A stretch of DNA of 64,000 nucleotides from Planctomycetales bacterium (GTDB taxonomy: Bacteria > 4484-113 > JAFGCY01): assembly GCA_022646745.1 (NCBI GenBank), contig CP060262.1, forward strand, positions 3,897,188-3,961,187, in the 5' to 3' direction. Within the stretch, counting starts at the first letter, position 1. Each line of letters begins with the position of its first letter. Below are positions 11,051-61,575 of this stretch, piece by piece. The notes beneath the pieces are model-generated. The model was not told the origin of the DNA. It saw only the letters and a program-made list of their open reading frames with translations, and ran no database searches. The translations under genes were made by a program, and so were the position numbers.

Positions 11051-12460
11051 CTACAGGCCGTGGATCGCGCGGCCGTCCACCGCAAACGCCGCTTCCTTCA
11101 CCGCTTCGCTCAGCGTCGGGTGAGCATGGCAGGTGCGCGCGATATCCTCAGCGCTGGCCTTGAACTCCATCGCCGTGGCGCATTCCGCGATCAGGTCGCC
11201 GGCCTGTGGGCCGATGATGTGCACACCGAGTACGCGGTCCGTCTTCGCATCCGCGAGGATCTTCACGCTGCCATCCGTTTCGTTCATTGAGTGCGCACGG
11301 CCATTGGCCTTGAAGATGAACTTGCCGGCCTTGAACTCGATGCCGGCCTCCTTAAGCTCCTCCTCGGTCTTGCCAACCGTGGCGATCTCAGGGTGCGTGT
11401 AGACGATGCCGGGAATCACGTCGTAGTTCACGTGGCCATAGCCTGTGGCGATCAGCTCCACGCAGGCGATGCCTTCCTCCTCAGCCTTGTGTGCGAGCAT
11501 CGGGCCGTGGATCACGTCGCCGATCGCGAAAATGCCGTCGACATTCGTACGGTAGTGGTCGTCAACCACCACCTGGCCACGCTCATTGAGCTTGACACCG
11601 GCTTCCTCGGCCCCGAGACCGTCCGTGTTGGCCCAGCGGCCGACCACGCTCAGCAGGCGGTCGCATTCCACCGGGTCCTGGCCCTCGATCTCGACGATCA
11701 CCTTCTTGCCCTTGACCTTGGCACCGGTGACCTTGGTCCCGAGGCGGAACTCGAGTCCCTGCTTCTTCATCACGCGCAGGCTCTCGCGGGCCAGGCCGCT
11801 GTCCATGCCGGGCAGGATGCGGTCGAGGTACTCAAGCACGATCACCTTGCTGCCGAGCCGGTGCCAGACACTGCCAAGCTCCAGGCCGATGTAGCCGGCA
11901 CCGATCACGACGAGGGTCTCCGGCACATCCGGGAAGCTCAGGCCGCCCTTCGAACCGCAGATGCGGTCGTTGTCAATTTCCACGCCCCTGAGCTGGGCCG
12001 GCTTGGAGCCGGTGGCGATCATGATGCGCGCGGTCTCGTAGACCTGCTTGTTGCCATCGAAGTCCGTCACCTCGACCTTGCCCGCCGACACAATCCGTCC
12101 GCTGCCACGCAGCCCGGTGACGCCGTTCTTCTTGAACAGGCCGTCAATCCCGCCGGCGTTGATCTGCACAACCTTGTCCTTGCGTGCCATCATCTGCGCC
12201 AGGTTGAGCTTGACGCCCTTGACCTCGATGCCGTGGTCGCCCAGCAGGTCCTTCGCCTGGTGGTAGCGGTAGCTGCTCTCCAGCAGCGCCTTGCTCGGGA
12301 TGCAGCCCACGCGCAGGCAGGTGCCGCCGAACAGCTCGTTCTTGTCAACGCAGGCCGTCTTCAGGCCGAGCTGGCCGGCACGGATCGCGGCGACGTAGCC
12401 GCCCGGGCCGCCGCCGATGACAATCAGGTCGAATTTCTCGTTGCTCATCTCATTCCCCAC
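11051..12460 (-). CDS. lpdA: dihydrolipoyl dehydrogenase (E3 component)
   Basis: FAD-binding GGGPGGYVAAIRAGQLG, redox-active disulfide GGTCLRVGCIPSKAL; downstream of sucAB. True start may be the second ATG at 12448 (MSNEKF...). Confidence 0.93.
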   Translation of the reverse strand: MGNEMSNEKFDLIVIGGGPGGYVAAIRAGQLGLKTACVDKNELFGGTCLRVGCIPSKALLESSYRYHQAKDLLGDHGIEVKGVKLNLAQMMARKDKVVQINAGGIDGLFKKNGVTGLRGSGRIVSAGKVEVTDFDGNKQVYETARIMIATGSKPAQLRGVEIDNDRICGSKGGLSFPDVPETLVVIGAGYIGLELGSVWHRLGSKVIVLEYLDRILPGMDSGLARESLRVMKKQGLEFRLGTKVTGAKVKGKKVIVEIEGQDPVECDRLLSVVGRWANTDGLGAEEAGVKLNERGQVVVDDHYRTNVDGIFAIGDVIHGPMLAHKAEEEGIACVELIATGYGHVNYDVIPGIVYTHPEIATVGKTEEELKEAGIEFKAGKFIFKANGRAHSMNETDGSVKILADAKTDRVLGVHIIGPQAGDLIAECATAMEFKASAEDIARTCHAHPTLSEAVKEAAFAVDGRAIHGL

Positions 12461-12522: not shown

Positions 12523-12834
12523 TCAGCCCTTGTGGGCATTCCAGGCGTCGAAGCCGCCCTTGAGCACGTATGCGTTGTTCCAGCCTTCCCTCGTGTACTT
12601 GACTGCCCGACCGACAGCTGACGAATCGCCATGTCAATCTCAATAGAAGACGATTTCGCGGTCGCGGTCCAGCTCGTCCTGGATCTTGACGAACTCGTAC
12701 ATCGGGATCGCCGGCTCGATGCGTGTCGCATTGTAGCCAGCCTCCATCATGTACGTGTTGATCACGAGGATGTCAGGGTTCTCGGCAAGCCGCTGTTTCA
12801 GCTCGCTGACCGTCATATGCTTCAGGTCTGACAT
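12523..12834 (-). CDS. single-domain rhodanese-like sulfurtransferase with two in-frame TGA codons at the active-site position (candidate selenoprotein, alternatively pseudogene)
   Basis: ATG 12834 with AAGGAGG 6 nt upstream; rhodanese N-region (...DRDREIVFY); in-frame TGA at 12640-12642 and 12634-12636; same frame continues HGDSSAVGRAVKYTREGWNNAYVLKGGFDAWNAHKG to TGA 12523-12525. Confidence 0.6.
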
Positions 12835-12848
12835 GCGGTTCCTCCTTG

Positions 12849-14066
12849 CTAGATTTCCAGTAGCATGCGTGACGGGTCCTCGATGCAGTCCTTGATGCGC
12901 CTGAGGAATGTCACGCTTTCACGTCCGTCGATCACGCGGTGGTCATAGGTCAGCGCCACGTACATGATCGGCCGGATCTTCACCTCGCCATTGATGGCGA
13001 CGGGTCGCTCGACGATGTTGTGCAGCCCGAGGATGCCGGACTGTGGCGGGTTGAGGATAGGCGTTGACATCATTGAGCCGTACACACCACCGTTTGAGAT
13101 GGTGAAGGTACCGCCCTCCAGCTCTTCGAGCTCGATGTCATTGGCCTGGGCCCGCTTCGCGAAGTCGGCGATTGCCAATTCAGTCTGGGCGAAGCTGAGC
13201 AGCTCGGCATTGCGGATCACGGGTACCACGAGGCCCTTGCCACCACCGATCGCCACGCCGATGTCGTAGTAATTGTGGTAGACCAGGTGGCCGTCATCGG
13301 TGATTTCCGCATTGACCTGCGGGAACTCCTTGAGGGCGTCGATCGCGGCCTTGGCGAAGAAGCTCATGAAGCCGAGCTTGATGCCGTACTTCTTCTCGAA
13401 GCTGTCCTTGTAGCGGTTGCGCAGTTCCATCACCGCGCTCATGTCAATCTCGTTGAAGGTCGTCAGCTGGGCGGTACCCTGCTTGCTTTCCACCAGGCGG
13501 CGCGCGATGGTCTTGCGCATCGGGCTCATGCGCACCTTCTCGACACTGCGCGGTCCCTGCGGGGCAGAGCTATCGCGGGCGGCCTCGGTGTACTTCGCCG
13601 GTGTCGCGGCCTCGGCATCCTCCTTGAGGATGCGGCCGTCCTTGCCATTGCCCTTCACATCCGCGGCATCGATGCCCTTCTGGGCAAGGATGCGCTGGGC
13701 GGAGGGCATTGCCACTCCGGCGGAACCGTTGTCAGACTTTGATGCAGCCGGGGCTTCCTGCTTCGGAGCTTCAGCCCTGGGAGCCTCCTGCTTCGGCTGC
13801 TCCTGCGGCTTCTCGTCCGCCGGGGCCTCGGCCTCCTCCATCGTGGCAATCACCTCGCCGATCTCGCAGGGCTCGCCGGCCGGCTTGAGGATCTTCGTGA
13901 TGATGCCGGAGATCGGAGCCGGCAGCTCCATCGAGGCCTTGTCTGACTCCAGTTCACAGATGAAGTCATCCTCCTCGACGTAGTCACCTTCCTTCTTCAT
14001 CCATTCAGAGACGATCACCTCGGTCACCGACTCTCCGGCGCTCGGGATCCTGATTTCCACAGCCAT
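12849..14066 (-). CDS. sucB: 2-oxoglutarate dehydrogenase E2 component (dihydrolipoyllysine-residue succinyltransferase)
   Basis: N-terminal lipoyl domain ([17 protein letters not shown]), Ala/Pro-rich linker, C-terminal catalytic domain with DHRVIDGRE; AAGGAGA RBS; directly downstream of E1. Confidence 0.9.
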
Positions 14067-14087: not shown

Positions 14088-16913
14088 CTAGGAACCGGCC
14101 TCTTCAGCCTGCTCCCCGGTGATGGCGAAGCTGATCAGTCGCTTCTGCTCCGCCTTGTGCACGGTCTCCGATCCGCTGGCCGGGCTCGGGCTGGCCGGCC
14201 GGCTGACAACGCTGAACGGATGGCCCGCGAATTCATTGCCCCACTTAACGCGCAGGAAGCGCCAGGCACCGAAGTTCTCCGGCTCCTCCTGTACCCAGAC
14301 CAGCGGGGTGCCGGCCTTGTACTTCTTCAGTTCCTTCTTGAGGCTGGCATCCGGCAGTGGATAGATCTGCTCCAGGCGCAGGATCGCCACATTGCTCAGG
14401 CCGCGTGCCTCACGCTCGGCCTCCAGCTCGTAGTACACCTTGCCGCTGCACAGCAGGATGCGTGAGACATCACGGTCCTGGTCGGGCAGGATATCGGGCA
14501 GCACTCGCTGGAAGCGCCGCTCGGACAGGTCATCCCAGTCAGACACCACGCGCGGGTGGCGGAACAGGCTCTTCGGTGACATCACGATCAGCGGCTTGCG
14601 CCAGATGCCCTTCACCTGGCGGCGCAGCAGGTGGAAGATCTGCGCCGGGGTAGTCACGTTGACGACCTGCATGTTGTCATTCGCACACAGGGTCAGGAAG
14701 CGCTCAAGCCTTGCGCTGGAGTGCTCACTGCCCATTCCCTCACTGCCGTGCGGCAGCAGCATCACGAGGCCGGTGAGGTACTCCCACTTCTCCTCGCAGC
14801 TTGAGATGAACTGGTCGATGATCACCTGGGCCGTGTTGACGAAGTCGCCGAACTGGGCCTCCCAGATCACGAGCGCATCCGGGTAGTCCAGGCTGTAGCC
14901 AAACTCGAAGCCGAGCACGCCGGCCTCTGACAACGGGCTGTTGTAGATCCGCACCGGGGCCTGGCCCGTCGAGACATGCTGCAAGGGGCGGTACATCTCG
15001 CCGGTCTCCTGGTCGTGGATCACGGCATAGCGGTGGGCGAAGGTGCCGCGCTCGCAGTCCTGGCCGCTCATGCGCACCGGGATGCCCTCATCCGCCAGGC
15101 TGGCGTAGGCCAGCGCCTCGGCGGCGCTCCAGTCCAGCGGGGCCTCGCCATCCAGCATCTGCTGGCGCTTGGCATTGTGCTTCACCACGTTGTCATGCGG
15201 ATGGAAGCCCTCCGGCAGCCTGATGGTGGCCGCCAGCAGCTCACGCAGGCGCGGTTCCGGCACACGGGTGTCAACCTTGAACAGGTCGCTGTCCAGCCCG
15301 CCCTTGTAGTGCGCCCAGACTTCGGCCAGCGTGCCGTGAGGGCTTTCGACTTCAGGCTTCTCGTCATTCTTGAGGAGATTCAGGTCCTCGCTGAGGGTGC
15401 TGCGGCGCTCCTTGGCAATCGCCTGCGCTTCTGCGCGGGTGATGCCGTTGAGCTTGAGCAGCTTCTCCTGGTAGTTGTCCTTCACCGAGGGGTGCGCCTT
15501 GATCTGCTTGTACATCAGCGGCTGGGTGAGCATCGGCTCATCCTGCTCGTTGTGCCCCCAGTAGCGGAAGCAGTACATGTCGATCACCACGTCGGTCTGG
15601 AAGCGCTGGCGGTAGTCCATCGCAACGTTGACGACCTGGGCCACGGCCTCCGGGTCCTCACCGTTGACGTGGAAGATCGGCACCTCGAGCATCTTGGCGA
15701 TGTCGGAGGCGTAGGTCGTCGAGCGGGAGTCCGCCGGGTCAGTGGTGAAGCCGAGCTGGTTGTTGACGATGATGTGCAGGGTGCCGCCGGTGCGGTAGCC
15801 CTTGAGCTGGCTCAGGTTGAGCGTCTCCTGCACGATGCCCTCGCCGATGAAGGCCGCGTCGCCGTGGATCATGATGCCCAGCCCGTTGCGGCGCTCGTTG
15901 TCTCCATGGCGGTCCATGTTGGCACGGACGCGGCCACTGACGACGGGATTGACAAATTCAAGGTGGCTCGGGTTGAAGCACAGTGACAGGTGCATCTCCC
16001 TGCCGTTGTCACATTGATACTTCGTGCCGTAACCAAGGTGGTACTTCACGTCACCGCGCTTGTTCTCGTAATGCGGGTGCGTGCCCAGGAACTCCTGGAA
16101 GATCTCATAGGGGCGCTTGCCCAGCAGGTTGATCAGCACGTTCATGCGGCCGCGGTGCGACATGCCGATTATCACGCCGTTCATGTCGTTCTCGCCGGCC
16201 TTCTCGAGCGCCATGTAGAGCAGCGGCATCAGGGTCTCGCCGCCCGAGAGCGAGAAGCTCTTCTTGCCCATGAATTTCTTGAAGATGAAGTCCTCAAGGA
16301 TGGTGGCGTCGATCAGGATCTGCAGGATCTTGCGCTGCATGGTGGCGCTCATCTCGAGCCTGTTGCGTGTGCTTTCCATGCGCTGCTCGAGCCAGTCCTG
16401 CTTCTCCGTCGAGTTGATGTGCATGAACTGCACACCGATGCTGCGACAGTAGGTCTCGCGCATCGCCTCGATGATCTCGCGCAGGGTGAGCGTATCCGGA
16501 CCCGCGATCGTCTTGGAGCTGAAGCGCTTCTCCATGTCGGCTTCGGTGAAGCCGTAGTAGTCCGGGTCGAGCTCTTCGAAGTGCGGGCGCGGGCGGCCCA
16601 GCGGGTCCAGCTTGGCGATCATGTGCCCACGGACACGGAACAGGCGGACCAGCTGGTCCACGCGATCCTGCAGGTCCGCAGCCGCCATGCTGGCGCCGTT
16701 GCTGCCATGGCCATTGCCGTTGAAGATGCTGCGCGCGGGAAAGCTCGGTCCGAGCTGGAATTCCCTGGCGCCGCTGTCCCCGTTACCCTCGAAGGACGCA
16801 AAGTACCTGCGCCAGCTCTCGGAAACGCTCTGAGGATCCCTCAGGTAGTCCTCATACAGGCCTTCCATGAAGGCCAGGCTCTGAACATCCAATGATTGGT
16901 CAGGATTATCCAT
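14088..16913 (-). CDS. sucA: 2-oxoglutarate dehydrogenase E1 component
   Basis: about 940 aa; N-terminus MDNPDQSLDVQSLAFMEGLYEDYLRDPQSV matches SucA-type N-termini; start set at internal ATG 16913 (track ORF to 16973 is a GTG extension). Confidence 0.9.
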   Translation of the reverse strand: MDNPDQSLDVQSLAFMEGLYEDYLRDPQSVSESWRRYFASFEGNGDSGAREFQLGPSFPARSIFNGNGHGSNGASMAAADLQDRVDQLVRLFRVRGHMIAKLDPLGRPRPHFEELDPDYYGFTEADMEKRFSSKTIAGPDTLTLREIIEAMRETYCRSIGVQFMHINSTEKQDWLEQRMESTRNRLEMSATMQRKILQILIDATILEDFIFKKFMGKKSFSLSGGETLMPLLYMALEKAGENDMNGVIIGMSHRGRMNVLINLLGKRPYEIFQEFLGTHPHYENKRGDVKYHLGYGTKYQCDNGREMHLSLCFNPSHLEFVNPVVSGRVRANMDRHGDNERRNGLGIMIHGDAAFIGEGIVQETLNLSQLKGYRTGGTLHIIVNNQLGFTTDPADSRSTTYASDIAKMLEVPIFHVNGEDPEAVAQVVNVAMDYRQRFQTDVVIDMYCFRYWGHNEQDEPMLTQPLMYKQIKAHPSVKDNYQEKLLKLNGITRAEAQAIAKERRSTLSEDLNLLKNDEKPEVESPHGTLAEVWAHYKGGLDSDLFKVDTRVPEPRLRELLAATIRLPEGFHPHDNVVKHNAKRQQMLDGEAPLDWSAAEALAYASLADEGIPVRMSGQDCERGTFAHRYAVIHDQETGEMYRPLQHVSTGQAPVRIYNSPLSEAGVLGFEFGYSLDYPDALVIWEAQFGDFVNTAQVIIDQFISSCEEKWEYLTGLVMLLPHGSEGMGSEHSSARLERFLTLCANDNMQVVNVTTPAQIFHLLRRQVKGIWRKPLIVMSPKSLFRHPRVVSDWDDLSERRFQRVLPDILPDQDRDVSRILLCSGKVYYELEAEREARGLSNVAILRLEQIYPLPDASLKKELKKYKAGTPLVWVQEEPENFGAWRFLRVKWGNEFAGHPFSVVSRPASPSPASGSETVHKAEQKRLISFAITGEQAEEAGS

Positions 16914-17152
16914 ATCCCGATAAGGCCAAATTCCTGATTTCCCGGCAGACAATATAAACAAAACAGCCCTCACCCGACCCTGCGGAAACAGTGTGGGTGA
17001 AGGTCAAACCTCACCGGGATGCATACCTCTGGCTTCTGAAGTGTACCATCGGTATAAGGTGCGATATCGTGCCTTAGGCTAATTTAGCCAGCGTTTTTCC
17101 CTGATTGGATCTAATGCTTAGCCAGTCTGCTAATTAAAACCAGCGGGAGCCT

Positions 17153-18355
17153 TTACTCCATCTCAAGTGAGTACTGTTCACTCAGATTCAGACCCTTTGA
17201 GCGAATTTCCAGGCGGCCGGCATGGATTTCCATCAATCCACCGGTAATCCAGCGTGGATTGACCGACTGGCCGCTTAGTTCGTGGCCCAGCCGGTTGCGC
17301 AGCTGCAGGAAACTGTCCGCCGGCGGGGCACTGGCTTTTGGATCGAGCTCCGCCATAGCCTGCCCCAGAGGATCGTCCGCACTACCGATGGATTCAATTG
17401 CGGTGTTCCAGACGATATGGCTTTTGGGGTTGCTCACTACCGCCGTTCCAAGGCGCGAGGCACTGCCCAGTCCGAGTCCGATGTAGTCCCCGCCCTGCCA
17501 ATAGCGGATGTTGTGCATGCTTTCATGACCTGGCATGGCATAGTTGTTGACTTCATAGCGGTAGTGGCCATAGCCGCGCAGCAGGCATTCCACGGCGTGC
17601 TGCTGGTACAGCACATCCCGGTCTGAAGGGATCTGCTGCGGGTAGCGCATGGCCCAGCGTGTGTAGGCGGTATGCGGCTCAGGTACCAGCCAATAGGCGG
17701 AGAAATGCGGCGGGCGGAATTCAAGCAGCCTGCGGCCACTTTCCAGCAATGTGCCGACACTCTGGTTGGGCAGGCCGTAGATCAGGTCGAAGCTGTAGTT
17801 GCGGATCGGACCATCCGCCACCATCTCCAGCACCGGAACCGTCTCGGCCCAGCGGTGGGTGCGCCCCATGAACTTCAGCAGGCGGTCGTTTGAGGACTGG
17901 ATGCCGATTGACAGCCGGTTAACGCCGGACTCGTGCATCGCTGCCAGTTTCTCCTGGTCAAGTGTGTCCGGATTGGCTTCGCAGGAGAATTCGACAGGGC
18001 CCCCTGCGGTAGGGAAACTGCTCATCAGTTCGCTGGCAATCCGTGCCAGGTCTGCCGCCGGGAGCATTGTCGGAGTACCGCCACCGATGAAGATGCTGTC
18101 CACGCGACGGCCAGTGCCTGCCAGTCTTGCCGTCAACCAGGCCCCGCGCGCTTCGATCTCGCGCAGCAGGCTGGATTCGTAACTGGCCTCGTCCAATCCC
18201 CTGGGGCGCTTCGGGCCGAACTTGAGGAAGTCGCAGTAGGTACAGATCGCCGGACAGAACGGGATGTGAACGTACACACCGAGGTTGCGTCTGAGCGCGG
18301 TGATGTCCCAGTTGCGCCACGGCCGGCGGATGCGCACGAATCTTGCCACCCGCAT
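17153..18355 (-). CDS. hemW: radical SAM protein, HemW/HemN-like (heme chaperone / coproporphyrinogen III oxidase-like)
   Basis: Radical SAM CxxxCxxC motif in VHIPFCPAICTYCDF; size about 400 aa fits HemW better than HemN. Confidence 0.8.
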   Translation of the reverse strand: MRVARFVRIRRPWRNWDITALRRNLGVYVHIPFCPAICTYCDFLKFGPKRPRGLDEASYESSLLREIEARGAWLTARLAGTGRRVDSIFIGGGTPTMLPAADLARIASELMSSFPTAGGPVEFSCEANPDTLDQEKLAAMHESGVNRLSIGIQSSNDRLLKFMGRTHRWAETVPVLEMVADGPIRNYSFDLIYGLPNQSVGTLLESGRRLLEFRPPHFSAYWLVPEPHTAYTRWAMRYPQQIPSDRDVLYQQHAVECLLRGYGHYRYEVNNYAMPGHESMHNIRYWQGGDYIGLGLGSASRLGTAVVSNPKSHIVWNTAIESIGSADDPLGQAMAELDPKASAPPADSFLQLRNRLGHELSGQSVNPRWITGGLMEIHAGRLEIRSKGLNLSEQYSLEME

Positions 18356-28503: not shown

Positions 28504-29688
28504 TCAGGCGCCCTGGCTTGTGATCGGCAGTCCTACACGCCACAGCGTGACCGGCAGGTTGGTCTGCACACTGAGGTCGACGAGCCAGCACTGGCGGTCG
28601 TGCGCCGGGATTATACGCATGCCTGTCTGCAAGCCCTGGTACAGCCAGAGCCGGTTGCCTGCGGAGTCATAACAGAACAGCAGTCCGGTGACGGGGGTTG
28701 CCACCATTGATGTTGCATTTGGAGATCCGGCAGTGGGATCCGGATACTCCGCCGGGAAACCGCTTACGAATGTCTCACCGTTGAGGCCAGCCACGATGTC
28801 ACGCACGACGAGATCATCCGGCCACCGGAGTGCAAGCGACTGCCCATCAGCATCGAGGCCCTGCAAGCCATCGCCGATCCGCAGCCACAGGTTGCCTCCG
28901 CTGCTGCGCAATTCCCTGATCTCTGCTCCTGGCAATGCATTCCAAAGCACTTCGCCGGATGGATCCGCGCACTCCACACCGCCGTCAATTGCGGGATAGG
29001 CAATCCTCCCCGCATCCAGCAGGCCGGCATGGTGGCTGGCACTGTACTTCTTCCAGCGCAGTTCACCCTCCAAGTCCAGGCAGTACAGGAACCCGTCGTC
29101 ACTTGCCGCATAGGCATTGCCATCATCCAGCAGCAGGCGGGCCGGCGCTCCCATCAGGAAATTCCATTGCTCCTGCCCTTCGTAACTGAAACAGGTCACG
29201 GACTGTTCAAGGATCGTCGTCAACAGCACATCATCCAGCAATATACATGTGTCGGCAGCGGGATACTGCGAACCGGGCCAGAATGGCTCCGGTGTCCAGA
29301 GTTCACCGCTGCGGGCGAAGCCGGTATCCGGGACATCGTTGCGCCAGACCTCGAGGTAGCCGTCTCGCCGGGTTGTTGCCAGCCAGCCGTCCGGTCCCAG
29401 CAGCAGTTCACGGTCGGCCAGCACCTCCTGGTCGGGCAGCATCATCGGCCGGCTGCCGTAGTAGTTCCAGCCACCCAGTGAGGCATCGTCCTCAATCAGT
29501 CCATCGTTGAAGTTCATCATCACTCGCAGCCGGTTGCCGGCCTGCAGCTGGTAATGGCCGCCGGGGTAATCGCCACTGGCCAGCTCCATCGCCTTTGGCA
29601 CGCGGCTCTTGCCAGCCTGCCCGCTGCAGCCTGTAAGCAGGCTGATTGAAATGAGAACTGCGAACGAAAAACTTGCCAGCCGGCTCAT
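28504..29688 (-). CDS. PQQ-like (BamB-type) beta-propeller repeat lipoprotein, paralog 1 of 8
   Basis: Lipobox LLTGC; repeated G.LY.LD..G.L.W blade motifs (FLYCLDLEGELRW); ATG overlaps upstream stop (ATGA); GGGAGG RBS. Confidence 0.75.
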   Translation of the reverse strand: MSRLASFSFAVLISISLLTGCSGQAGKSRVPKAMELASGDYPGGHYQLQAGNRLRVMMNFNDGLIEDDASLGGWNYYGSRPMMLPDQEVLADRELLLGPDGWLATTRRDGYLEVWRNDVPDTGFARSGELWTPEPFWPGSQYPAADTCILLDDVLLTTILEQSVTCFSYEGQEQWNFLMGAPARLLLDDGNAYAASDDGFLYCLDLEGELRWKKYSASHHAGLLDAGRIAYPAIDGGVECADPSGEVLWNALPGAEIRELRSSGGNLWLRIGDGLQGLDADGQSLALRWPDDLVVRDIVAGLNGETFVSGFPAEYPDPTAGSPNATSMVATPVTGLLFCYDSAGNRLWLYQGLQTGMRIIPAHDRQCWLVDLSVQTNLPVTLWRVGLPITSQGA

Positions 29689-30911
29689 CGCGCACCTCCC
29701 AGCCTGCAGATGCGGTCAGGCCCGTCATCGCTGACAAGCAGCAGCTTGTCCTCGCCAAAACCGTAGATGCGGTCGCAGTGCAGTTCCAGCCAGACCGGCA
29801 CATTGACCGGCACGCTGAGGGCCGCGGTTTCAAGCTGCAACTGCAGAGTCCCCGCGCTGGATGAAGATACGTAAGCGAACTCGAAGTCCGGCAACTCGCC
29901 ACGCATCATCCCGCTGAGCATGCCTGGCAGGCCTGCCAGCAGCGGATACTGCGCGCGGCCGGCATACATCAGCAGCTGGTCATCCTGGATCGCCGTGCCA
30001 TCCAGCAGGTACAGCTCGCTCAGTTCAGTGCTGCGTGTCTCGGTCCCATCCACGCTGTAGCGTGCATACTTGCCATCCCGGAAGCGGGCGATGCCATCCT
30101 CTGTCAGCCAGCAGTACCTGCTTGGTCCGGCGCTGTAACTGCTGAGCTGGCCCAGCTGACTGGCAACAAGCTTCCCGTCCAGCCTGCTGAGGCTGGTGCT
30201 CCTGCCCCGCTCCAGCACCATGCCACTTTCGGCCAGCTCAATCCCGGAGACATCCCAGATGTTGCCACCTCCGACCAGCTCCATCTGCCCGTCCCGACTG
30301 ACCCGCACACGTCCGCCATTGGAGACAGTCTGCAGGTTTCCCTCACTGTCCACCTCCATCCAGGGCCGGCTGGCCAGAATAGATGTCGCATTGGGTATCC
30401 TGCGGACCCAGAGCTTCTTGCCATTGGCATCAAGCCCGTAAACCAGGGCGGTTGCCATAGTGAAGAATGTCGCCTGCGCTTCGTTGCCTCGACGCACGCG
30501 AGTATGCATTTCATTGTGTACAGGCTCGTAACGCCAGGATTCCGATCCCTCTGCATCGATTGCGATAGCCCTGCCATAGCGACCGGTCAGCACCATCAGG
30601 CCATCCCCTGCCTGCACGCTGCTGAGTGTGAAATGGGCCGGTGCCGCGAATTGCCAGTCCAGCCTGCCTTCCGTGCTGATCCGCGTTATTCGGCCGGAAC
30701 GCTCCTGCAGTACCAGGCCGCCCAGTCCATCGTCAATCGGTTCAAGCAGCAGCTCGCCGAAATCCGGATCGCCAAGTGTATGCAGGCTCAGCAGTTCATT
30801 CGGACTGAACAGGCGGGATGCAAGCATCATCAGCATGCCGGCCAACCAGCAAAGCAGCAGCGCGGCACTCACCATCACGGCCCTGCGTTGCCAGCGCTGC
30901 ATTGTATCCAT
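29685..30911 (-). CDS. PQQ-like beta-propeller repeat protein with N-terminal membrane anchor, paralog 2 of 8
   Basis: N-terminal TM (VMVSAALLLCWLAGMLMMLA); blade motif ALVYGLDANGKKLW. Confidence 0.75.
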   Translation of the reverse strand: MDTMQRWQRRAVMVSAALLLCWLAGMLMMLASRLFSPNELLSLHTLGDPDFGELLLEPIDDGLGGLVLQERSGRITRISTEGRLDWQFAAPAHFTLSSVQAGDGLMVLTGRYGRAIAIDAEGSESWRYEPVHNEMHTRVRRGNEAQATFFTMATALVYGLDANGKKLWVRRIPNATSILASRPWMEVDSEGNLQTVSNGGRVRVSRDGQMELVGGGNIWDVSGIELAESGMVLERGRSTSLSRLDGKLVASQLGQLSSYSAGPSRYCWLTEDGIARFRDGKYARYSVDGTETRSTELSELYLLDGTAIQDDQLLMYAGRAQYPLLAGLPGMLSGMMRGELPDFEFAYVSSSSAGTLQLQLETAALSVPVNVPVWLELHCDRIYGFGEDKLLLVSDDGPDRICRLGGAR

Positions 30912-30984
30912 GACCTGATTCTAGCTCAGCGGGGCACTGTCCCTGAGCTTTCCCTCCCATTACATGACTGGATCACCAACAGTG

Positions 30985-32124
30985 TTACTCGGGTGCGGAA
31001 AGCAGGACGAGGCCCTGCTTATCCTGCGTTGCGGTAAACAAGGTGCCATTGCTTCCGGTATGGGCAAAATAGGGGTAACCTTCCATCTTTTCACCGCGCC
31101 AGAGTACCTTTCCCTGTGGATTGATGCACAGCCAGTGGAAGGGAGTATTCACACGGTTTGCTATCCGGCCCCCAAACCAGCTGTTGCGGAAATCCCTGTC
31201 ATAGATCCTCAAAAAGGTGTATCCATCCCTGGAAAGCTCCAAACTGGACCAGCCAATTGATTCCAGCCTGCAGCGCCAGAGCCGCTTTCCATCCGCATCG
31301 TAGCAATCAACCCCCCAGCTCCGCTGGATCGCAAATCGATTTCCGGCATCATCGACTTTTGCATACACGTGGCCCAGCTTCTCACCGGAGTGATCCTGGA
31401 TCCAGAGTTCCGTTCCTTCCCAATCCAGGCATACGAGGTTCAGTGAATCAGATCCCGTGACAAGTATCCTGTCACCGAAGGCCTGAGCCTGCTGCACACC
31501 CTTGCGGGTCCAGCTGACCCGCCCCTGGCTGTCCAGGCAGGCAAGCTCCCCGTCCCGCCCGAACACCAGCAGGTGCTGGTAGTCCTGCGACTGGCTGAAG
31601 CTGATCATGTATCCGCCCATGTATTCCCAGCTGGGATTGCCCTGCTGGTCAAATCCGACAATCTGCTGCTGGTCATACATCACGAACGGATCCGTTCCGA
31701 GGAAGCCCATGCTGCCATCCTGGCCGGAGTACCTGACAAAGTTGCCAGAACTTCCATCAGATGCGGTATCCGGCCGACTCAGCAATACTGAGTCATTGCC
31801 ACGGTCGCTGAAAACGAGCCGCACCCCGCCACTGGGCCCGTTGTCGGGGAAGAGGTACTGTCCGTCCGGCCCCGCTACCATCTCGGTCAGCTGGCTCGAA
31901 TAGACCGGGTAGCCCTGTTGCGATGCCTGGCTGGCGGTTGGCTTGTCACCTGCCTCCTTCTCCGCATCGATGCTGAGCATGCCGCTGCCCTGCCAGTTGA
32001 GCACAGTATTGTCATCTGAAACAAGCATCGGCCCGAGCACATTCAGTTCACGCTCCATGGCAACAGGAACCCTGCCGCAGGATACCAGTAGCAGCAATGC
32101 CATCAACAGGACAGCGCTATACAT
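30985..32124 (-). CDS. PQQ-like beta-propeller repeat lipoprotein, paralog 3 of 8
   Basis: Lipobox LLLVSC; blade motif LLVFGRDGELACLDSQGRVSW. Confidence 0.75.
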   Translation of the reverse strand: MYSAVLLMALLLLVSCGRVPVAMERELNVLGPMLVSDDNTVLNWQGSGMLSIDAEKEAGDKPTASQASQQGYPVYSSQLTEMVAGPDGQYLFPDNGPSGGVRLVFSDRGNDSVLLSRPDTASDGSSGNFVRYSGQDGSMGFLGTDPFVMYDQQQIVGFDQQGNPSWEYMGGYMISFSQSQDYQHLLVFGRDGELACLDSQGRVSWTRKGVQQAQAFGDRILVTGSDSLNLVCLDWEGTELWIQDHSGEKLGHVYAKVDDAGNRFAIQRSWGVDCYDADGKRLWRCRLESIGWSSLELSRDGYTFLRIYDRDFRNSWFGGRIANRVNTPFHWLCINPQGKVLWRGEKMEGYPYFAHTGSNGTLFTATQDKQGLVLLSAPE

Positions 32125-33412
32125 CGGCAGCCTCCAGCGCCAGGCACCTGAGCTGCTTGTCGTTGCTGATCAGGTAGATCCGGTCCTTGCTGCAGTGCAT
32201 CGCCGAGAAGCCGTTGAAGTTCTGCCCGCTGCCGATATCCAGTGCAGCCAGCCTCTCCCCTTCGCGGATCACTTCCAAGCGGAACACCTGGGACTGCTGC
32301 AGCCTCGGATTCAGCTGGCCGGCAGCCGGCGAAGCGAAAGGCAGGGCTGCAGAGACCATGGGAAACAAGGCGGACAGGTGTTCCAGTGCGGTCAGCAGGT
32401 TGTCAGTCCTGCCCGTCACCAGTGCGAATGCATCCCCCAGGTCCTGGGCATCCGAAACACTGCCGGCTTCAAGTGGAATGCTCCATTGCTCCTCAAGCTG
32501 GTAGTCCAGCGCACGCACCACGGCATCACTGGTCGGCACGAGGATCAGCCCGGCTGAACTGGCAACCTGGTTGGGACTGATGTAGAAACCGGGCGATGTA
32601 CCCAGCTGATTGATCTTCTTGTGGATCTGCTCCCCGTCCCTGACCAGGCAGAGCTGGTTGCCACCGGAGTACAGCAGTTCGCCGTTGCCGACAACTCCAC
32701 GCAGGTCCAGTATCTCCCCGCTGAAGTAGATCTGCTGTCCACCGGCCGTCTTCGCGGGAGTTTTCGGCTTGCTGGGACGTTCGAGCGGAATGCGCTCGCC
32801 ACTAATTGTGTAAATGCTCACGCTGGAGAAATCGTTGCACAGGAAGCTGTAGCTGCCGGCGTACTCGAAATAGCTTGGCAGCCCAAACGGGTCATACATC
32901 TGCCTGGTATTGACAACCCAGCATGGCTCGCCGGCCGCGCTGATTCCGTAGAGCAGGATGCCCTGCTTGAGGAAGGCGACCGCCTGGCTGCCTTCCCGTG
33001 GCTCAAGCAATTCACGGTACCGCTGCGGATCGGGCCGGCAGTTCCACAGTTCCTGTCCCTGTGCATCGAGGGCAAGCAGCTCACCCTTGCCTGTGGTCAG
33101 GTAGGTGATGGCATCTACCCGCTGGATCGGTGAGCGGATACTGTCAATCGTGTGCTCCCGGCTCCATAACACCCTGCCATCGGGAGTGATCATCTGGAGC
33201 TGTCCGGCCAGCATGTCCTGGGTGTAGACAAGGCAGCCATCTTCGGATGCATCCACTACGGCACACCATGTCGCATCAAGCTGCCTGCTCCAGAGCTGCG
33301 TGAGCCCACTGTCCCTGCCGATTGCCAGCCTGAGCGTAATCCAGCCAGCCGCCCACAGCACGGCGTAAACTGCAATTGCCAGCACCATTTTCCGGTGGAT
33401 CCTGCTTGCCAT
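32117..33412 (-). CDS. PQQ-like beta-propeller repeat protein with N-terminal membrane anchor, paralog 4 of 8
   Basis: N-terminal TM (MVLAIAVYAVLWAAGWITL); blade motif LLALDAQGQELW; 8-nt overlap with next gene. Confidence 0.75.
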   Translation of the reverse strand: MASRIHRKMVLAIAVYAVLWAAGWITLRLAIGRDSGLTQLWSRQLDATWCAVVDASEDGCLVYTQDMLAGQLQMITPDGRVLWSREHTIDSIRSPIQRVDAITYLTTGKGELLALDAQGQELWNCRPDPQRYRELLEPREGSQAVAFLKQGILLYGISAAGEPCWVVNTRQMYDPFGLPSYFEYAGSYSFLCNDFSSVSIYTISGERIPLERPSKPKTPAKTAGGQQIYFSGEILDLRGVVGNGELLYSGGNQLCLVRDGEQIHKKINQLGTSPGFYISPNQVASSAGLILVPTSDAVVRALDYQLEEQWSIPLEAGSVSDAQDLGDAFALVTGRTDNLLTALEHLSALFPMVSAALPFASPAAGQLNPRLQQSQVFRLEVIREGERLAALDIGSGQNFNGFSAMHCSKDRIYLISNDKQLRCLALEAADV

Positions 33413-33510
33413 GTTTCCCTGCCAGTCCCTGCAAAGATGCCCGTTCAGTTATTGCTCCGGGCAAACAATGGTTCAATTGTAAATCAGGACGCTGCCGGAC
33501 CGTCCCGGGT

Positions 33511-34692
33511 TCAGAAGCCACGCCACATGGAACCCGGCGGGCCATGGAAGGTGAGTACGCTGTTGTTCCCCACCTCGAACTGGCCGATCAGACCACCGGA
33601 GAAGGTCAGGGCTCCGTGGCTGCGCACCATCTCCCCATCGGCGGCCTGCCAGATGACCTGCCCGTCGGGATCCACACAGAACCCAAGCTCAGAGATGCGG
33701 AACGGGAACATCCCTTCGCGCTCGACAGAGCCGTTGTAGGCTTGCTGGTAACGGACAAAGGCAAACATATGACCGTCCGGCGCACCAACGAAGTAGGAGA
33801 AGCCGGTGTCGCCAACCGGCAGTTCGGTACGCCACAGCTCCTCACCTGCCGTGCTGATGCATAGTGCGGTCCTGCGATAATCGTGAGCAAAAATCCGTCC
33901 ATTGGACACGGCGGTCGGCAGGCAGGTAATGTCCATCTCGAGCTCCCATAGCAGCTTGCCATCGCTGTCCAGGGCTCGAAGCCTGCCGTCAGTGCTGTAA
34001 CCGTAGAAGCTGCTGCCATCCGTCACGCAGCTCTGCATTTCGGGATTGCTCCAGAGCAATTCTCCGTTCCCGTCCAGCGCAAGGATCATCCCGTAGAAGC
34101 AGCTGATATACAGCCTTTCCCCATTCGTACTCGATTGGAGTTGGGCATTGCTCCCTACATTGAATTCCCAAAGCGGATTGCCCTGCAGGTCGAATGCTCC
34201 GAGCATCTGTGCGTCATCGTCGGCAATCACCACCATCCCGTCCAGGAACGCCGCCTCATTGCCAAACTGGCAGTCAAAGGAACGGCCATAGGTTGACAGC
34301 GTAAGTTCGGTTTCCAGCGGCACCATCACGGACGGGTCCGCCCGCGACACAAGCAGGGGCCGGGAGTATGAATCAGTGATGGCCAACCAGTCGTCATTCC
34401 AGCCGCGGATCTCGAGTCGACCGGGATTGAATGTCATTTCCGAGCCATCCGGCCAGACGGCATCCATGCCTGTACCCTGTGCAATCAGCTGCTCCGGTTC
34501 ACCGGGCACCATGCGATAAAGGCTGAAAGTCGGCATGTCCAGTGAAAGGATGCTGCCATCCTCCAGCTCGGCATAGTAGTAACCGGAGAGGGAGTAACTG
34601 CGCGTGTCTGATGCCGGCAGCACTTCAGGCTGGGCTTGCAACATAGCTGATGGGATGGCAACAAGCAGCAGTGCGATGACGAGCGCTTTCAT
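33511..34692 (-). CDS. PQQ-like beta-propeller repeat exported protein, paralog 5 of 8
   Basis: Signal peptide MKALVIALLLVAIPSAMLQA; blade motifs AFDLQGNPLW, ILALDGNGELLW, LRALDSDGKLLW, VDPDGQVIW. Confidence 0.8.
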   Translation of the reverse strand: MKALVIALLLVAIPSAMLQAQPEVLPASDTRSYSLSGYYYAELEDGSILSLDMPTFSLYRMVPGEPEQLIAQGTGMDAVWPDGSEMTFNPGRLEIRGWNDDWLAITDSYSRPLLVSRADPSVMVPLETELTLSTYGRSFDCQFGNEAAFLDGMVVIADDDAQMLGAFDLQGNPLWEFNVGSNAQLQSSTNGERLYISCFYGMILALDGNGELLWSNPEMQSCVTDGSSFYGYSTDGRLRALDSDGKLLWELEMDITCLPTAVSNGRIFAHDYRRTALCISTAGEELWRTELPVGDTGFSYFVGAPDGHMFAFVRYQQAYNGSVEREGMFPFRISELGFCVDPDGQVIWQAADGEMVRSHGALTFSGGLIGQFEVGNNSVLTFHGPPGSMWRGF

Positions 34693-35888
34693 AGTCCCGC
34701 CTCCAGACCATATACCCAGACGCCTTGCCTCGCATGCCAGACCACTATGCCTCCTCCCGCAATCGCTGACATGTGATAGTCCTCGGAAAGTACGGGGCCA
34801 AACAGCGACTGCTGCCAGGCGATCCGATCGTCTGAAACCTCAAGCATGATGATGTCACTTACGAATGCTGATCCATCCTTGCCCGCAGGTAGCTCCTCGG
34901 CGGCAGGCAGGCCCACGAGAGCAGTCCCGGCTGCCTGGCCATCCGCCAGTGGCGTGCTGCCCAGCAGCAGCACGCGAGTCCCGGACTGCACCACATCAAG
35001 CACCTGCCCTGGCAGGTCCAGCGCGTCACTGTGAACCACCAGGCTGTCGTCAAGCAGGCCAAACACCCTGCCCCAGCGCCTGCCTCCCCAGCCAATGTTG
35101 CCAGTTCCGAACTGGAAGTCCTTGAATCCGCCGCTGTCAAGCGACTCCGTGCGCATGCTCGACTCCAGCGAGAAGCTGAGCTGTTGGTCCAGCAGCTGCA
35201 TACGGCCATCATCGCCATACACCAGCATCCGTCCGTCCGGCAGCACCGCCGCATGGTCCCCCCAGCGGGTGCCTTCCGGGCCGTTGATACTGTGCTTGAT
35301 GCCTTGGCTGTCCAGCCAAAGGAGCTCCCGGTCCGGCGTACGATACATCCACAGCAGGTCCAGCGGCAGCTGCTGCGGGTCAAATGGATCCAGCCAGGTG
35401 TCGTAGAGTTCTCCGTTGTCAGACATCCAGCACAAGCCGCCGCTGCTGTCCAGTCCGTAATCGAAGCGCCCGTCGGAGGTCCGCACTACTGCAGGCGCTG
35501 CGTCCGTCCCCGGCAGGTGCTCCAGTGCTTTCCACGGTTCGGGATGGAATTCCCAGGCCGGCTGCCCTTGCCTGTCCACTGCCCAAGCCTGGCCACCCAT
35601 GCCGGTGAATATCGTGAACCCGGGAAACTCGTAGCAGCGCCAGGCAATGTTCCAGCGCAGCCAGTCCGCATGCCAGATGTGCTGTCCCGTGGCATCATAG
35701 TGGGAGATGCCAAGGTTGACATCCTTGACATACAGGCCGCCCTTGTTGCCAACGACCACGGATGATTCGCCTGCTGCCGCTGGCAGGCTCCACTTCAGCT
35801 GCAGCGGATCATCCTGCGCCATCGCCACCCCGCCAGCCAGCAGGCATGCCAGCAAGGCCATAAGTCCCGTCACCCTTGTTCGTGTCAT
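34689..35888 (-). CDS. PQQ-like beta-propeller repeat exported protein, paralog 6 of 8
   Basis: Signal peptide ...LLACLLAGGVAMA; blade motif AWAVDRQGQPAW; stop overlaps next start (ATGA). Confidence 0.75.
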   Translation of the reverse strand: MTRTRVTGLMALLACLLAGGVAMAQDDPLQLKWSLPAAAGESSVVVGNKGGLYVKDVNLGISHYDATGQHIWHADWLRWNIAWRCYEFPGFTIFTGMGGQAWAVDRQGQPAWEFHPEPWKALEHLPGTDAAPAVVRTSDGRFDYGLDSSGGLCWMSDNGELYDTWLDPFDPQQLPLDLLWMYRTPDRELLWLDSQGIKHSINGPEGTRWGDHAAVLPDGRMLVYGDDGRMQLLDQQLSFSLESSMRTESLDSGGFKDFQFGTGNIGWGGRRWGRVFGLLDDSLVVHSDALDLPGQVLDVVQSGTRVLLLGSTPLADGQAAGTALVGLPAAEELPAGKDGSAFVSDIIMLEVSDDRIAWQQSLFGPVLSEDYHMSAIAGGGIVVWHARQGVWVYGLEAGL

Positions 35889-35941
35889 GGATGGATTGTA
35901 AGGCAGGGACGCTTACTATGCACAATCGCTGTTCTACCGGC

Positions 35942-37105
35942 TTATTGTTGGCTTCCTGATGAATCGACCGGATCGAGGCAGACCAAGGTTTCCGGCTTGC
36001 GCTCATAGACGTACAACCGGCCATCATAACCAGGCAGGTAGTTGCCATTGTGAGAAGCAGTCTTAGTCGAACTCCAGAGGAACCTGCCCTGTGGATCAAT
36101 GCAGCTCCACCGACTATCCCTGACGGTACTACCTGTTGTGAATCTCGATAAAAACATGCTGCGTCCAATACTCCAGTCAATTCGCCAGATAAAGACATAT
36201 CCATCCGGACTGATGTAATACGGCGAAGTGAACTCGTCGCCCATGTCATACACCCATTGTTCCTTGCCTTCCCGGTCATAGGCATGCAGGAACTGGCCAC
36301 TGCCGACAACGCACAGCGGGCTGCGTGGCTCCGTCAGCAGGCGTGGGAATTCCATGTCCAGAAGTGGAACCTGCCACTGCTCTTTGCCATCCCAATCAAG
36401 GCACAGCAGGTTTCCCTTATCGTCCAGCGTAACCAGCCTGTCACCCATGGACAGGGTGGAGAAGCAGCCCATGCGCTTCCAGAGCAGCTCTCCCTGCGGG
36501 CTGAGGCAATGCAACGAGCCGGACTGGCAACCAAGAGCAATTCGCTTGTCGTCATCTGCCCTTAGCAGGTAGCTGCCTGCGTCGCCGTTGAAGCGCCAGG
36601 CAGGCTGCAGCGCAGAGTCATATGCCTGCACGAACTGGCTGTTGTAGAGGATGACCGGATTGCCATCTAGGGAGCATGCGTCAAAGCGGTCACTCATGTT
36701 TACTCGCGGGGGCCAGCCGGATCCTTCCGGAATGCCGAGTTCGACATATTCATTGCCAGCATTGCCATCCAGCACCCAGGTCCGTCCGTCAGCGGCGACG
36801 ATGTAGCGTCCCTCACCGATCGGGACGAGCTGGTTGAGGCCCTGGCTCCTGAGGGCATCCGGCAGCAAAGGACTTCCGGATCCAGCGGAGCTGGCCTGCC
36901 CCAGGTCTACGCCGGAAAACTCACCAGCTGCTGAAACCTCTGCCATTCCCCTGCCGTGGTAAAGCCGCAGGCTGTTGTCAGGCAGCACTTCCATGCTGCC
37001 ATACAACCTGGTCTCATATGTGTGCTGTACGTTCTCCTCTTCCGCACGGGACATATCGCAGGCGGACAGGATCATTGCGCAAAGCAGCAGGGCGATGATC
37101 CTCAC
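35942..37105 (-). CDS. PQQ-like beta-propeller repeat lipoprotein, paralog 7 of 8
   Basis: Probable GTG start at 37105 (GGAG upstream, GTGA overlap with upstream stop) giving lipoprotein signal MRIIALLLCAMILSAC; blade motifs LHCLSPQGELLW, LLCLDWDGKEQW. Track ORF extends to 37138 (TTG). Confidence 0.7.
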   Translation of the reverse strand: MRIIALLLCAMILSACDMSRAEEENVQHTYETRLYGSMEVLPDNSLRLYHGRGMAEVSAAGEFSGVDLGQASSAGSGSPLLPDALRSQGLNQLVPIGEGRYIVAADGRTWVLDGNAGNEYVELGIPEGSGWPPRVNMSDRFDACSLDGNPVILYNSQFVQAYDSALQPAWRFNGDAGSYLLRADDDKRIALGCQSGSLHCLSPQGELLWKRMGCFSTLSMGDRLVTLDDKGNLLCLDWDGKEQWQVPLLDMEFPRLLTEPRSPLCVVGSGQFLHAYDREGKEQWVYDMGDEFTSPYYISPDGYVFIWRIDWSIGRSMFLSRFTTGSTVRDSRWSCIDPQGRFLWSSTKTASHNGNYLPGYDGRLYVYERKPETLVCLDPVDSSGSQQ

Positions 37106-38376: not shown

Positions 38377-38399
38377 CTGCTGCAAGCATAGCGCAGAAG

Positions 38400-38795
38400 C
38401 TAGTGTTCCTCCCAGACGATCAGCGCCGCATCCGCCAGGTCGTTGTCTGGCATTCCGAACAAGCGCCGCCACATCTGCTTGAACTCGGCCTCGTCATGCG
38501 GCCACTGTTCCAGCCACTCCCTGAATTGCGGCCACTGGAACAGCGTCGGGATGTCCCCCACCCCGCGGCAGTAGTCGTGGATCATCTCCCAGCAGATCGG
38601 CACCACCGTGCCCGGCTTCTGTGCCGTGCTGCCGCGCATGAAATTCACCAGCACGCCGCGCTCGGGCTTGTCCTCGCCGCGCACCATCGCCACCCCGGTG
38701 CCCCGGTCCACGGCGTAGTAATGCGGCTCGATGTATACGATCTGCACGGCTAGGATGATAGCCGAGGGCGGCTGCTGGGAACCTCTGGCTTGCAC
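38400..38795 (-). CDS. hypothetical Trp-rich small protein, first gene of the minus-strand propeller operon
   Basis: 131-aa ORF (GTG start) ending 21 nt before paralog 8; no recognised domain. Confidence 0.4.
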   Translation of the reverse strand: MQARGSQQPPSAIILAVQIVYIEPHYYAVDRGTGVAMVRGEDKPERGVLVNFMRGSTAQKPGTVVPICWEMIHDYCRGVGDIPTLFQWPQFREWLEQWPHDEAEFKQMWRRLFGMPDNDLADAALIVWEEH

Positions 38796-49384: not shown

Positions 49385-49476
49385 ACCAGCGCTTCTCCCG
49401 GGATTGTGGCGGGAACCACTGCTCCGGGTTAGAATCAAACGGCTGAAATCTGTTTCGATACTTGGGGGTATCGGAT

Positions 49477-53625: not shown

Positions 53626-54018
53626 AAAGGTACTTGAAATTTGATTAATGTGTACGTATACTGTTTCCATAGCTTCGGCTGCGCTCTGGGAGCCAGCTGG
53701 AAGACACGCGCAATTGAGGAAGTAGGAATTGCTTGATCAGCATTCGAACTTTCGGATCACAGGGGCTGCTGTGAACCTCGCAGTCCTTTGCGCGCATATT
53801 TACTACCCCGGCACCGCATGCAATTGCCGTGCTGCGACACATGCTTCCCAGTACTCCGGCCGTCCTGGACCGGTCGAGATAATCCGGCTGAAACATACTG
53901 CATGAGGAGGTATCTGATGTCCAGTCGTGGCAGCAGTGTTGCCACTCGAAACCCTGCCTACCGGGCGGGTCAATTGCGCTTATTAATTATTTCCATACCA
54001 ACATCTATAGGAGTTATC

Positions 54019-61565: not shown

Positions 61566-61575
61566 GGAGCGACGG

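Follow-up and report, generated by a model that had tools for sequence, protein, structure and literature searches.

A predicted Sec-Asp-Sec rhodanese selenoprotein encoded between sucB and lpd, with one SECIS-type hairpin behind two in-frame UGA codons

A form of rhodanese-related sulfurtransferase selenoprotein in which two selenocysteines (Sec, U) are separated by a single residue, termed UxU, was described in deltaproteobacterial Olavius algarvensis symbionts (Zhang & Gladyshev 2007, NAR 35:4952; PMC1976440). It was predicted computationally from in-frame UGA codons together with a selenocysteine insertion sequence (SECIS), and no homologues carrying cysteine (Cys, C) only were listed in that dataset. 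The catalogue table of a 2026 review lists only the CxU form for this family ('rhodanese-like form 3, CxU, 1 Sec'; PMC13188914), and a full-text literature search returned no other paper that pairs the word 'UxU' with selenocysteine in the context of a selenoprotein catalogue. Here, we analysed a stretch of 64,000 nucleotides (nt) of contig CP060262.1, hereafter the window, in which a short minus-strand gene with two in-frame UGA codons lies between sucB and lpd of a 2-oxoglutarate dehydrogenase (OGDH) operon. Judged by its sequence and that of its relatives, the product of this gene is very probably a selenoprotein, a single-domain rhodanese of 103 residues whose active-site motif is Sec-Asp-Sec (UxU). 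A preceding sequence-only reading of the window had considered two UGA codons one codon apart unusual; the arrangement is indeed rare, but it is not new, since the UxU rhodanese form was published in 2007 (PMC1976440).

The gene comprises the following features:

12523-12834, minus strand: rhodanese coding sequence, 103 sense codons plus the terminal TGA (frame read from the sequence; Pfam PF00581)
12841-12847, minus strand: Shine-Dalgarno sequence AAGGAGG, 6 nt before the ATG (from the sequence)
12640-12642, minus strand: UGA codon 65, predicted Sec at the canonical catalytic-Cys position (alignment to 6pfz and 6mxv)
12634-12636, minus strand: UGA codon 67, predicted Sec, equivalent to the Sec position of CxU ('LYCAU') rhodanese selenoproteins
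12602-12618, minus strand: SECIS-type hairpin GCUGUC-GGUCG-GGCAGU with a 6-bp stem and a 5-nt loop (12608-12612), encoded by codons 73-78 (AVGRAV)
12523-12525, minus strand: terminal UGA, the true stop, without a hairpin downstream; homologues end at the same place or at most one codon away

The frame opens with the ATG at 12834-12832 and closes with the TGA at 12525-12523, and a single GAT codon (codon 66; 12639-12637) separates TGA 65 from TGA 67. Its translation is MSDLK...DRDREIVFY-stop-D-stop-HGDSSAVGRAV...YVLKGGFDAWNAHKG-stop, or in full MSDLKHMTVSELKQRLAENPDILVINTYMMEAGYNATRIEPAIPMYEFVKIQDELDRDREIVFY-TGA-D-TGA-HGDSSAVGRAVKYTREGWNNAYVLKGGFDAWNAHKG-TGA, which gives an active-site loop U65-D66-U67-H68-G69-D70-S71. 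The sequence-only reading had placed a minus-strand open reading frame (ORF) preceded by AAGGAGG and an ATG between sucB and lpd, with in-frame TGA codons at 12640-12642 and 12634-12636; read directly from the letters, the ORF has exactly these coordinates and both TGA codons are present exactly there.

With Cys written at both internal stops, the protein matched the Pfam family Rhodanese (PF00581) over residues 9-100 (E=7e-11; 42.9 bits, as compared with a gathering score of 22.2), covering positions 2-101 of the 102 in the profile and passing the whole-domain threshold. Alignments obtained with phmmer paired UGA65 with the active-site Cys of the rhodanese domains of 6pfz (VVVCAIGLRS) and 6mxv (FYCGGGFRS). 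The former is the best match among solved structures ('NADH oxidase NoxA-3', rhodanese domain residues 459-550; query residues 7-98), though a weak one (E=5e-4). U65 stands where PF00581 domains have their nucleophile (Cys or Sec), behind the central beta-strand and at the beginning of the active-site loop, and UGA67 lies two residues into this loop, at +2 from the catalytic position. Of 57 sequences, 36 are CxU relatives with a Cys codon (TGC or TGT) at position 65 and 21 are UxU sequences with TGA there; the Sec/Cys pair at this position is thus provided by these 36 relatives as well as by 6pfz and 6mxv. No Cys form was found at position 67 among the scanned genomes, where the scan pattern demanded TGA. 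As to the earlier view that both UGA codons stand at the catalytic Cys, alignment to Cys rhodaneses upholds it for the first, which falls on that residue, and corrects it for UGA67, which takes the Sec position of the CxU family.

UGA serves as a stop codon in this DNA. The 35 window ORFs of at least 150 amino acids (aa) end in TGA (20), TAG (10) or TAA (5), several of the TGA stops lie in overlapping ATGA junctions, and the rhodanese gene itself ends in TGA. With TGA as the most frequent genuine stop among these ORFs, UGA is not reassigned to sense here, in line with the sequence-only reading. The ORF map contained no further TGA-interrupted gene in the window (a scan based on GC content at third codon positions was too noisy). 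The ORFs 61276-62871 and 62920-63816 were considered as one TGA-interrupted gene and rejected: they share a frame, but the second has a lipoprotein signal peptide of its own.

Both UGA codons and the frame behind them are conserved. A search of 5.8 billion protein clusters yielded only five relatives, each annotated as 64 aa because the gene callers had halted at the same UGA each time. At the DNA level, close relatives comprised 12 loci from five lineages with 73-98% identity (NCBI metagenome-assembled genomes (MAGs), ENA and Logan assemblies). All 12 contain TGA-GAT-TGA followed by the open frame HGDS[SA]AVGRAV..GWNN.YVLKGG..AW, and all are located between sucB and lpd. Degraded copies, which would have spoken for decay, were not among these 12 loci, in which the frame is intact without frameshifts or extra stops. 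Moreover, relatives keep both UGA codons and the continuing frame throughout the range of identities, from 98% to about 30%. The ratio of nonsynonymous to synonymous substitution rates (dN/dS) was 0.03-0.38 for codons 1-64 upstream of the UGA codons and similar, 0.07-0.44, for codons 68-100 downstream of them, which indicates that the C-terminal part is translated and subject to purifying selection. When 1.84 billion representatives were searched exhaustively with a profile of the N-terminal 64 residues, most matches were 'proteins' of 60-68 aa that end in ...VFY (stop at 65) or in ...YC[A/S/N] (stop at 67), and P0009 was the sole full-length Cys-type relative. In total, TGA-NNN-TGA with an intact downstream frame was found in 21 sequences from at least seven phyla. 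Reading through the stops gave the following translations for four loci:

L013: FY-stop-D-stop-PGDSAAVGRAAEY..VLKGGYKAW (UDU)
L016: FY-stop-G-stop-PAEHSAAGQAA..ALKGGATAW (UGU)
L017: FY-stop-N-stop-PFDFTAARRAA..VLRGGVRAW (UNU)
L019: LYCA-stop-PHEHTSVGRAEE..VLEGGFAAW (CxU, a ...YCA member)

In all five lineages of the window's clade, codons 61-64 (ATC GTC TTC TAT; 12643-12654, minus strand), GAT66 and the hairpin codons show no synonymous change; for codons 61-64, just before the first UGA, this could mean that recoding requires a certain upstream context. Outside the clade, the TAY and GTN codons upstream of UGA65 vary. The ENA scaffold L003 (887-1200) was left out of the analyses; as compared with its siblings L001, L002 and L004 it contains G-to-T changes only (GGT to GTT; GGC GGC to TGC TGC), which look like low-coverage or oxidative-damage sequencing errors. 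In L018 (839-1260), a UGU form, rhodanese similarity is gone after '...EEGFT' in every frame; decay of this copy, a chimeric contig or faulty assembly could each account for the loss.

Downstream of the UGA codons, codons 73-78 (GCT GTC GGT CGG GCA GTC) are synonymously invariant within the clade, whereas neighbouring codons vary. In the consensus fold, GCUGUC-GGUCG-GGCAGU is the only helix conserved across every lineage, and the start of its loop lies 27 nt downstream of UGA65 and 21 nt downstream of UGA67. Divergent homologues form this helix in the same codon register from other sequences:

Window: 5' arm GCUGUC, loop GGUCG, 3' arm GGCAGU
L016: 5' arm GCUGCC, loop GGUCA, 3' arm GGCAGC
L017: 5' arm GGCCGCC, loop CGGCG, 3' arm GGCGGCC
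L018: 5' arm GCCGCGC, loop GUC, 3' arm GCGCGGC
L019: 5' arm UCCGUC, loop GGUCG, 3' arm GGCGGA

In nine lineages pairing was complete (54 of 54 cells), with double changes in three of the six pairs. Extending the comparison to 57 sequences, 96.2% of 342 cells paired, as opposed to 20-52% when the 3' partners were slid by 1-3 columns, and the covariation score observed was not attained in any of 500 shuffles. Of these sequences, 49 have CG and 7 have AU at pair 33-39; at pair 30-42, 27 have UA, 24 have CG and 4 have UG. As the columns of pair 30-42 are the synonymous third positions of Ala/Ser and Ala codons, their covariation argues for selection at the RNA level. Pairs 29-43 and 31-41 as well as G40 were fixed by the search pattern and therefore carry no weight in the covariation. 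The loop reads GGUC[A/U/G] in 50 of the 57 sequences.

The published model of the bacterial SECIS (bSECIS; PMC13188914, Fig. 2) specifies a loop of 3-9 nt, an upper stem of 4-16 bp, at least one G in the first two loop positions, a UGA-to-loop spacing of 16-37 nt and a minimum free energy (MFE) of at most -7.5 kcal/mol. The window hairpin agrees with this model in its 5-nt loop, its 6-bp stem, the GG at loop positions 1 and 2, both spacings, 27 and 21 nt, and, when flanking pairs are included, its energy of -11.0 kcal/mol. Thus, the suggestion to look for a SECIS downstream of the UGA codons proved fruitful, revealing a hairpin that fits the published model and covaries over 57 sequences. Taken together, the conserved UGA codons, the purifying selection, the covarying hairpin, the alignment to Cys rhodaneses and a nearest family that is itself a selenoprotein sustain the earlier preference for Sec recoding over decay.

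From these data we infer that both UGA codons are read as Sec from one hairpin. Translation would start at the ATG at 12834, and the ribosome would meet UGA65 and then UGA67, where the hairpin at 12602-12618 with its GGUCG loop would recruit SelB.GTP.Sec-tRNA(Sec) and thereby direct the insertion of Sec at both codons. At the final UGA (12525-12523), which is not followed by such a hairpin, termination would take place. Sec65 would be the rhodanese nucleophile, and Sec67 in the same loop could resolve the adduct via a diselenide, or via a selenenylsulfide in the CxU forms. The Sec65/Sec67 pair would probably alternate between a diselenide and two selenols, or act as carrier of a persulfide- or perselenide-type adduct. 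Since just 15 nt lie between UGA67 and the stem, no second hairpin fits, and a single hairpin would need to bring in SelB.GTP.Sec-tRNA two times in the space of two codons. The base following UGA67 is C in 41 of 57 sequences, and the base following UGA65 is G in 18 of 21 UxU sequences; UGA followed by C is a weak termination context. The proposal in its full extent is that one SECIS serves two Sec insertions at UGA codons 6 nt apart, that this arose repeatedly from CxU, and that in candidate phylum UBP7 the protein is a dedicated redox or S/Se-transfer partner of dihydrolipoyl-E2/E3. We put it forward tentatively, as a combination that is somewhat unlikely to hold in all its parts.

Several observations weigh against a selenoprotein with Sec at both codons. 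Pfam annotation of 37 window ORFs, 27 besides sucB and lpd, showed no selA, selB, selD or other selenium-related gene. The fetched loci likewise contained none of these three genes, and ARAGORN detected no tRNA-Sec in the 64-kb window or in 55 loci. An experimental precedent for one hairpin serving two UGA codons 6 nt apart was not found in the literature. A single UGA-SECIS event in E. coli is 30-40% efficient (PMC4513850), and such an efficiency per event would entail a low yield of full-length protein, unless the system is better tuned. The 17-nt hairpin of the window reaches -6.9 kcal/mol alone and -11.0 kcal/mol with flanking pairs (MFE limit, -7.5); alone, with its two G.U pairs, it is the weakest of the 57, the median in the family being -9.4 kcal/mol with 51 of 57 at or below -7.5. 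Nothing in the window matched Rfam at gathering thresholds, and single-sequence folding around the UGA codons was no better than that of shuffles (z = -0.27 and -0.94). Moreover, the minimum-energy fold in the window is not the hairpin but a competing helix, GAUUGACA/UGUCGGUC (12609-12639, minus strand), in which the region of the second UGA pairs with the hairpin's 5' arm and loop; it is the minimum-energy fold in L001 as well. As a functional element this helix was rejected, since it is disrupted in L012 and does not occur outside the clade, and the covarying hairpin was preferred.

Alternatively, only UGA67 might be read as Sec, whereas UGA65 would be decoded otherwise: a SelB-dependent, tRNA-Sec-like tRNA(Cys) could insert Cys there, for instance, or near-cognate read-through could yield Trp or Cys. 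In a further variant, UGA65 would mostly terminate translation. SelB-dependent insertion of Cys at UGA is a known process. The register of the hairpin is identical in CxU and UxU genes, which suggests that it is positioned for UGA67 (21 nt), with UGA65 lying 6 nt further away; this fits the alternative, as do the lack of space for a second hairpin and the repeated origin of UxU from CxU by a one-base change from TGY to TGA. However, the 27-nt spacing of UGA65 is still inside the bSECIS range of 16-37 nt, and UGA65 is strictly kept within each UxU clade amid synonymous change, arguing for a selected identity rather than a tolerated leak. In addition, selenoenzymes most often have their Sec at the nucleophile position (PMC13188914), and the authors of the 2007 study interpreted the same motif as two Sec (PMC1976440). 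On balance, a single Sec at UGA67 appears improbable to us, and insertion of Sec at both codons is the reading that we prefer.

The gene could also be a decaying pseudogene of a Cys-rhodanese, with the TGA codons as inactivating mutations, given that automated annotation yields a 64-aa hypothetical protein only and that in L018, a distant homologue, similarity to rhodaneses is lost near the C-terminus. Such decay is at odds with the recurrence of TGA-NNN-TGA and an intact frame in the 21 sequences from at least seven phyla, with a downstream dN/dS far below 1 in the absence of frameshifts or extra stops, and with a strong ribosome-binding site and a covarying RNA hairpin; we consider it effectively refuted and its probability very small. 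Smaller still is the chance of an assembly or sequencing artefact, or of UGA being a sense codon (code 4 or 25, or general read-through), in favour of which there is nothing beyond the presence of in-frame TGA codons. The same codons occur in independent assemblies from NCBI, ENA, Logan and JGI, and a sense reading under tables 4 or 25 is effectively refuted by the 20 of 35 long ORFs that end in TGA, with no other interrupted gene in the window.

For a genome scan, a degenerate 49-nt pattern was derived from the invariant columns of motif and hairpin, with TGH permitted at codon 65 and TGA obligatory at codon 67, so that CxC and UxC forms are invisible to it. The pattern gave one match per intact locus and one in the window, as compared with none in 100 shuffles of the window, and matched 51 species-representative genomes, two of them by chance (L041 and L053). 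CxU is carried by 35 genomes, including those of the cultured Desulfoluna limicola and D. butyratoxydans as well as Geobacter, Brocadia and Syntrophaceae. The 14 genomes with UxU belong to Zixibacteria, Methylomirabilota/NC10 (3), Gemmataceae, another Planctomycetota, Deltaproteobacteria (3), a Wallbacteria-like group (3), Chloroflexi and UBP7. The UxU rhodanese is thus widespread and little noticed (14 of 49 species-level genomes matched, at least seven phyla) and arose several times. Automated annotation misses the gene everywhere, the close relatives being deposited as 64-aa hypothetical proteins. The UBP7 match, JAGRNT010000006.1 ('bacterium isolate UBP7 HKST-UBA03'), is the contig of the relative with 81% identity to the window gene; three UBP7 MAGs stem from a saline activated-sludge time series in Hong Kong (PMC8495973). 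The finding implies the use of selenocysteine in this candidate phylum.

A neighbour-joining tree built with the two motif positions masked placed UxU in at least eight clusters among CxU forms, a number that is approximate because the tree is short and weakly resolved, and many of the UxU sequences have a CxU nearest neighbour. This interspersion indicates that the switch from Cys to Sec at position 65, which takes one base (TGY to TGA), has recurred.

The operon in which the window gene resides contains the following neighbours:

12849-14066, minus strand: sucB, E2 dihydrolipoyl succinyltransferase (Pfam Biotin_lipoyl, E3_binding, 2-oxoacid_dh)
11051-12448, minus strand: lpd, E3 dihydrolipoyl dehydrogenase (Pfam Pyr_redox_2, Pyr_redox_dim)
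14088-16973, minus strand: sucA, E1 2-oxoglutarate dehydrogenase, first gene of the operon (ORF map; Pfam of its orthologues)

The rhodanese ORF begins 14 nt beyond the sucB stop (TAG at 12849), and the ATG of lpd at 12448 lies 74 nt downstream of the rhodanese gene, with an alternative GTG upstream at 12460. Orthologues of sucA in L001, L005 and L013 contain E1_dh, Transket_pyr and OxoGdeHyase_C, and the window gene is 86% identical to that of L013 (tblastn). Directly upstream of sucA, a radical-SAM gene (17153-18355, minus strand) is kept throughout the clade (L001, L005 and L013; 75% identity in L013).

The order sucA-sucB-rhodanese-lpd occurs only in the window's clade (L001-L015 and L057) and in its nearest outgroup L019 (934-4252), where the operon copy is CxU (LYCA-stop-P) and a DUF3224 gene stands between rhodanese and lpd. 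Placement in the OGDH operon was seen in none of the other 47 genomes, and there is no gene neighbourhood conserved throughout the family, any other neighbour being common to at most 5 of 49 loci. On the simplest reading of these sequences, a CxU rhodanese would have been recruited into the OGDH operon ancestrally, and Cys65 would have become Sec later in the UBP7-type lineage. The position between sucB and lpd, found in this clade only, is the reason for proposing the dihydrolipoyl-E2/E3 couple as redox partner of the UxU rhodanese. This assignment, which is doubtful, draws on the operon position and on the analogy with the best structure match, 6pfz, which is part of a flavoprotein disulfide reductase fusion. 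The placement suggests that a selenoprotein may be connected with the lipoamide redox system and, if the partnership holds, the gene would add a new accessory subunit or function to the OGDH operon. Likewise, if both insertions take place, the locus would be a natural case of one SECIS being reloaded with SelB within two codons, counter to the usual view of one UGA and one SECIS for bacteria. The UxU rhodanese offers a natural test case for a single bacterial SECIS serving two nearby UGA codons, a question that is also relevant to the engineering of multi-Sec or diselenide proteins in bacteria.

Elsewhere in the window, eight tandem paralogues of about 380-456 aa (28504-38472, minus strand) have signal-peptide- or lipoprotein-like N-termini and weak Pfam matches to PQQ_2/BamB-type beta-propellers. 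A run of ORFs of 392-882 aa without Pfam match (38864-59040, plus strand), several of which share an N-terminal '..NPLPA(L/I)W', is followed by two giant ORFs, likewise without Pfam match, at 49462-53574 (1370 aa) and 53788-59040 (1750 aa). The AhpC/TSA-family protein encoded at 60061-60708 (minus strand) has the peroxidatic-Cys region FFYPANNTPNSANQ, which contains no Cys and no in-frame UGA; it was considered as a selenoprotein and rejected, with neither Cys nor UGA at the site, as a Cys-less peroxiredoxin-like protein.

Among described protein families, the best NCBIfam match of the window protein is NF041203 ('rhodanese_LYCAU, rhodanese-related (seleno)protein'; E=8e-15). Membership in this equivalog was rejected, given a score of 54.7 bits below the 115-bit cutoff and a U-D-U instead of a C-x-U motif. 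Typical CxU and UxU proteins of the broader group, from Desulfoluna, Geobacter-type genomes and others, themselves score just 48-69 bits, from which it follows that the model is narrow and covers a sub-branch only. By sequence similarity, the window protein is placed in the broader CxU/UxU group around NF041203. The Sec of the NF041203 family corresponds to the second UGA of the window gene, which has a predicted Sec where the family has its catalytic Cys, and the CxU relatives share the register of the window hairpin along with a GGUCN loop. The GlpE/PspE-type Cys rhodaneses (NF001195) were rejected as a family at 28.4 bits (cutoff, 102), and TsoB (NF045694) at 15.3 bits (cutoff, 805). TsoB, which is rhodanese/DsbD fusion-like, is also a rhodanese-domain selenoprotein with two Sec, but has a UxxxxU motif in an architecture of 572 positions, whereas the window protein is single-domain. 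In fusions of the 6pfz type, a rhodanese is coupled to a disulfide reductase, a flavoprotein from the superfamily to which Lpd also belongs; in the window, rhodanese and lpd are instead separate genes of one operon.

The GGUC loop of the window hairpin presumably resembles the apical loop of fdhF. Like the elements of the E. coli fdhF type and of the bSECISearch model, the window hairpin is a stem-loop inside the coding region just after the UGA, with a small apical loop starting with GG or GU and a conserved upper stem. It differs from the fdhF-type SECIS in being one element after two UGA codons, in having no obvious bulged U and in its low stability (-6.9 kcal/mol). The closest counterpart of the gene as a whole is the UxU form of the Olavius symbionts, with which it is compared here by the description given in that paper: both are single-domain rhodaneses of the CxU lineage in which the Cys codon is UGA as well, adding a second Sec to a one-Sec family. 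The window gene is set apart by its host, a lineage of candidate phylum UBP7 from saline activated sludge, by its position within sucA-sucB-rhodanese-lpd and by a divergent motif, U-D-U-H as opposed to mostly U-G/A-U-P in the family. Hence, the UxU motif itself is already known, and what is newer is its UBP7 host, its placement between sucB and lpd, and the single SECIS that apparently serves two UGA codons.

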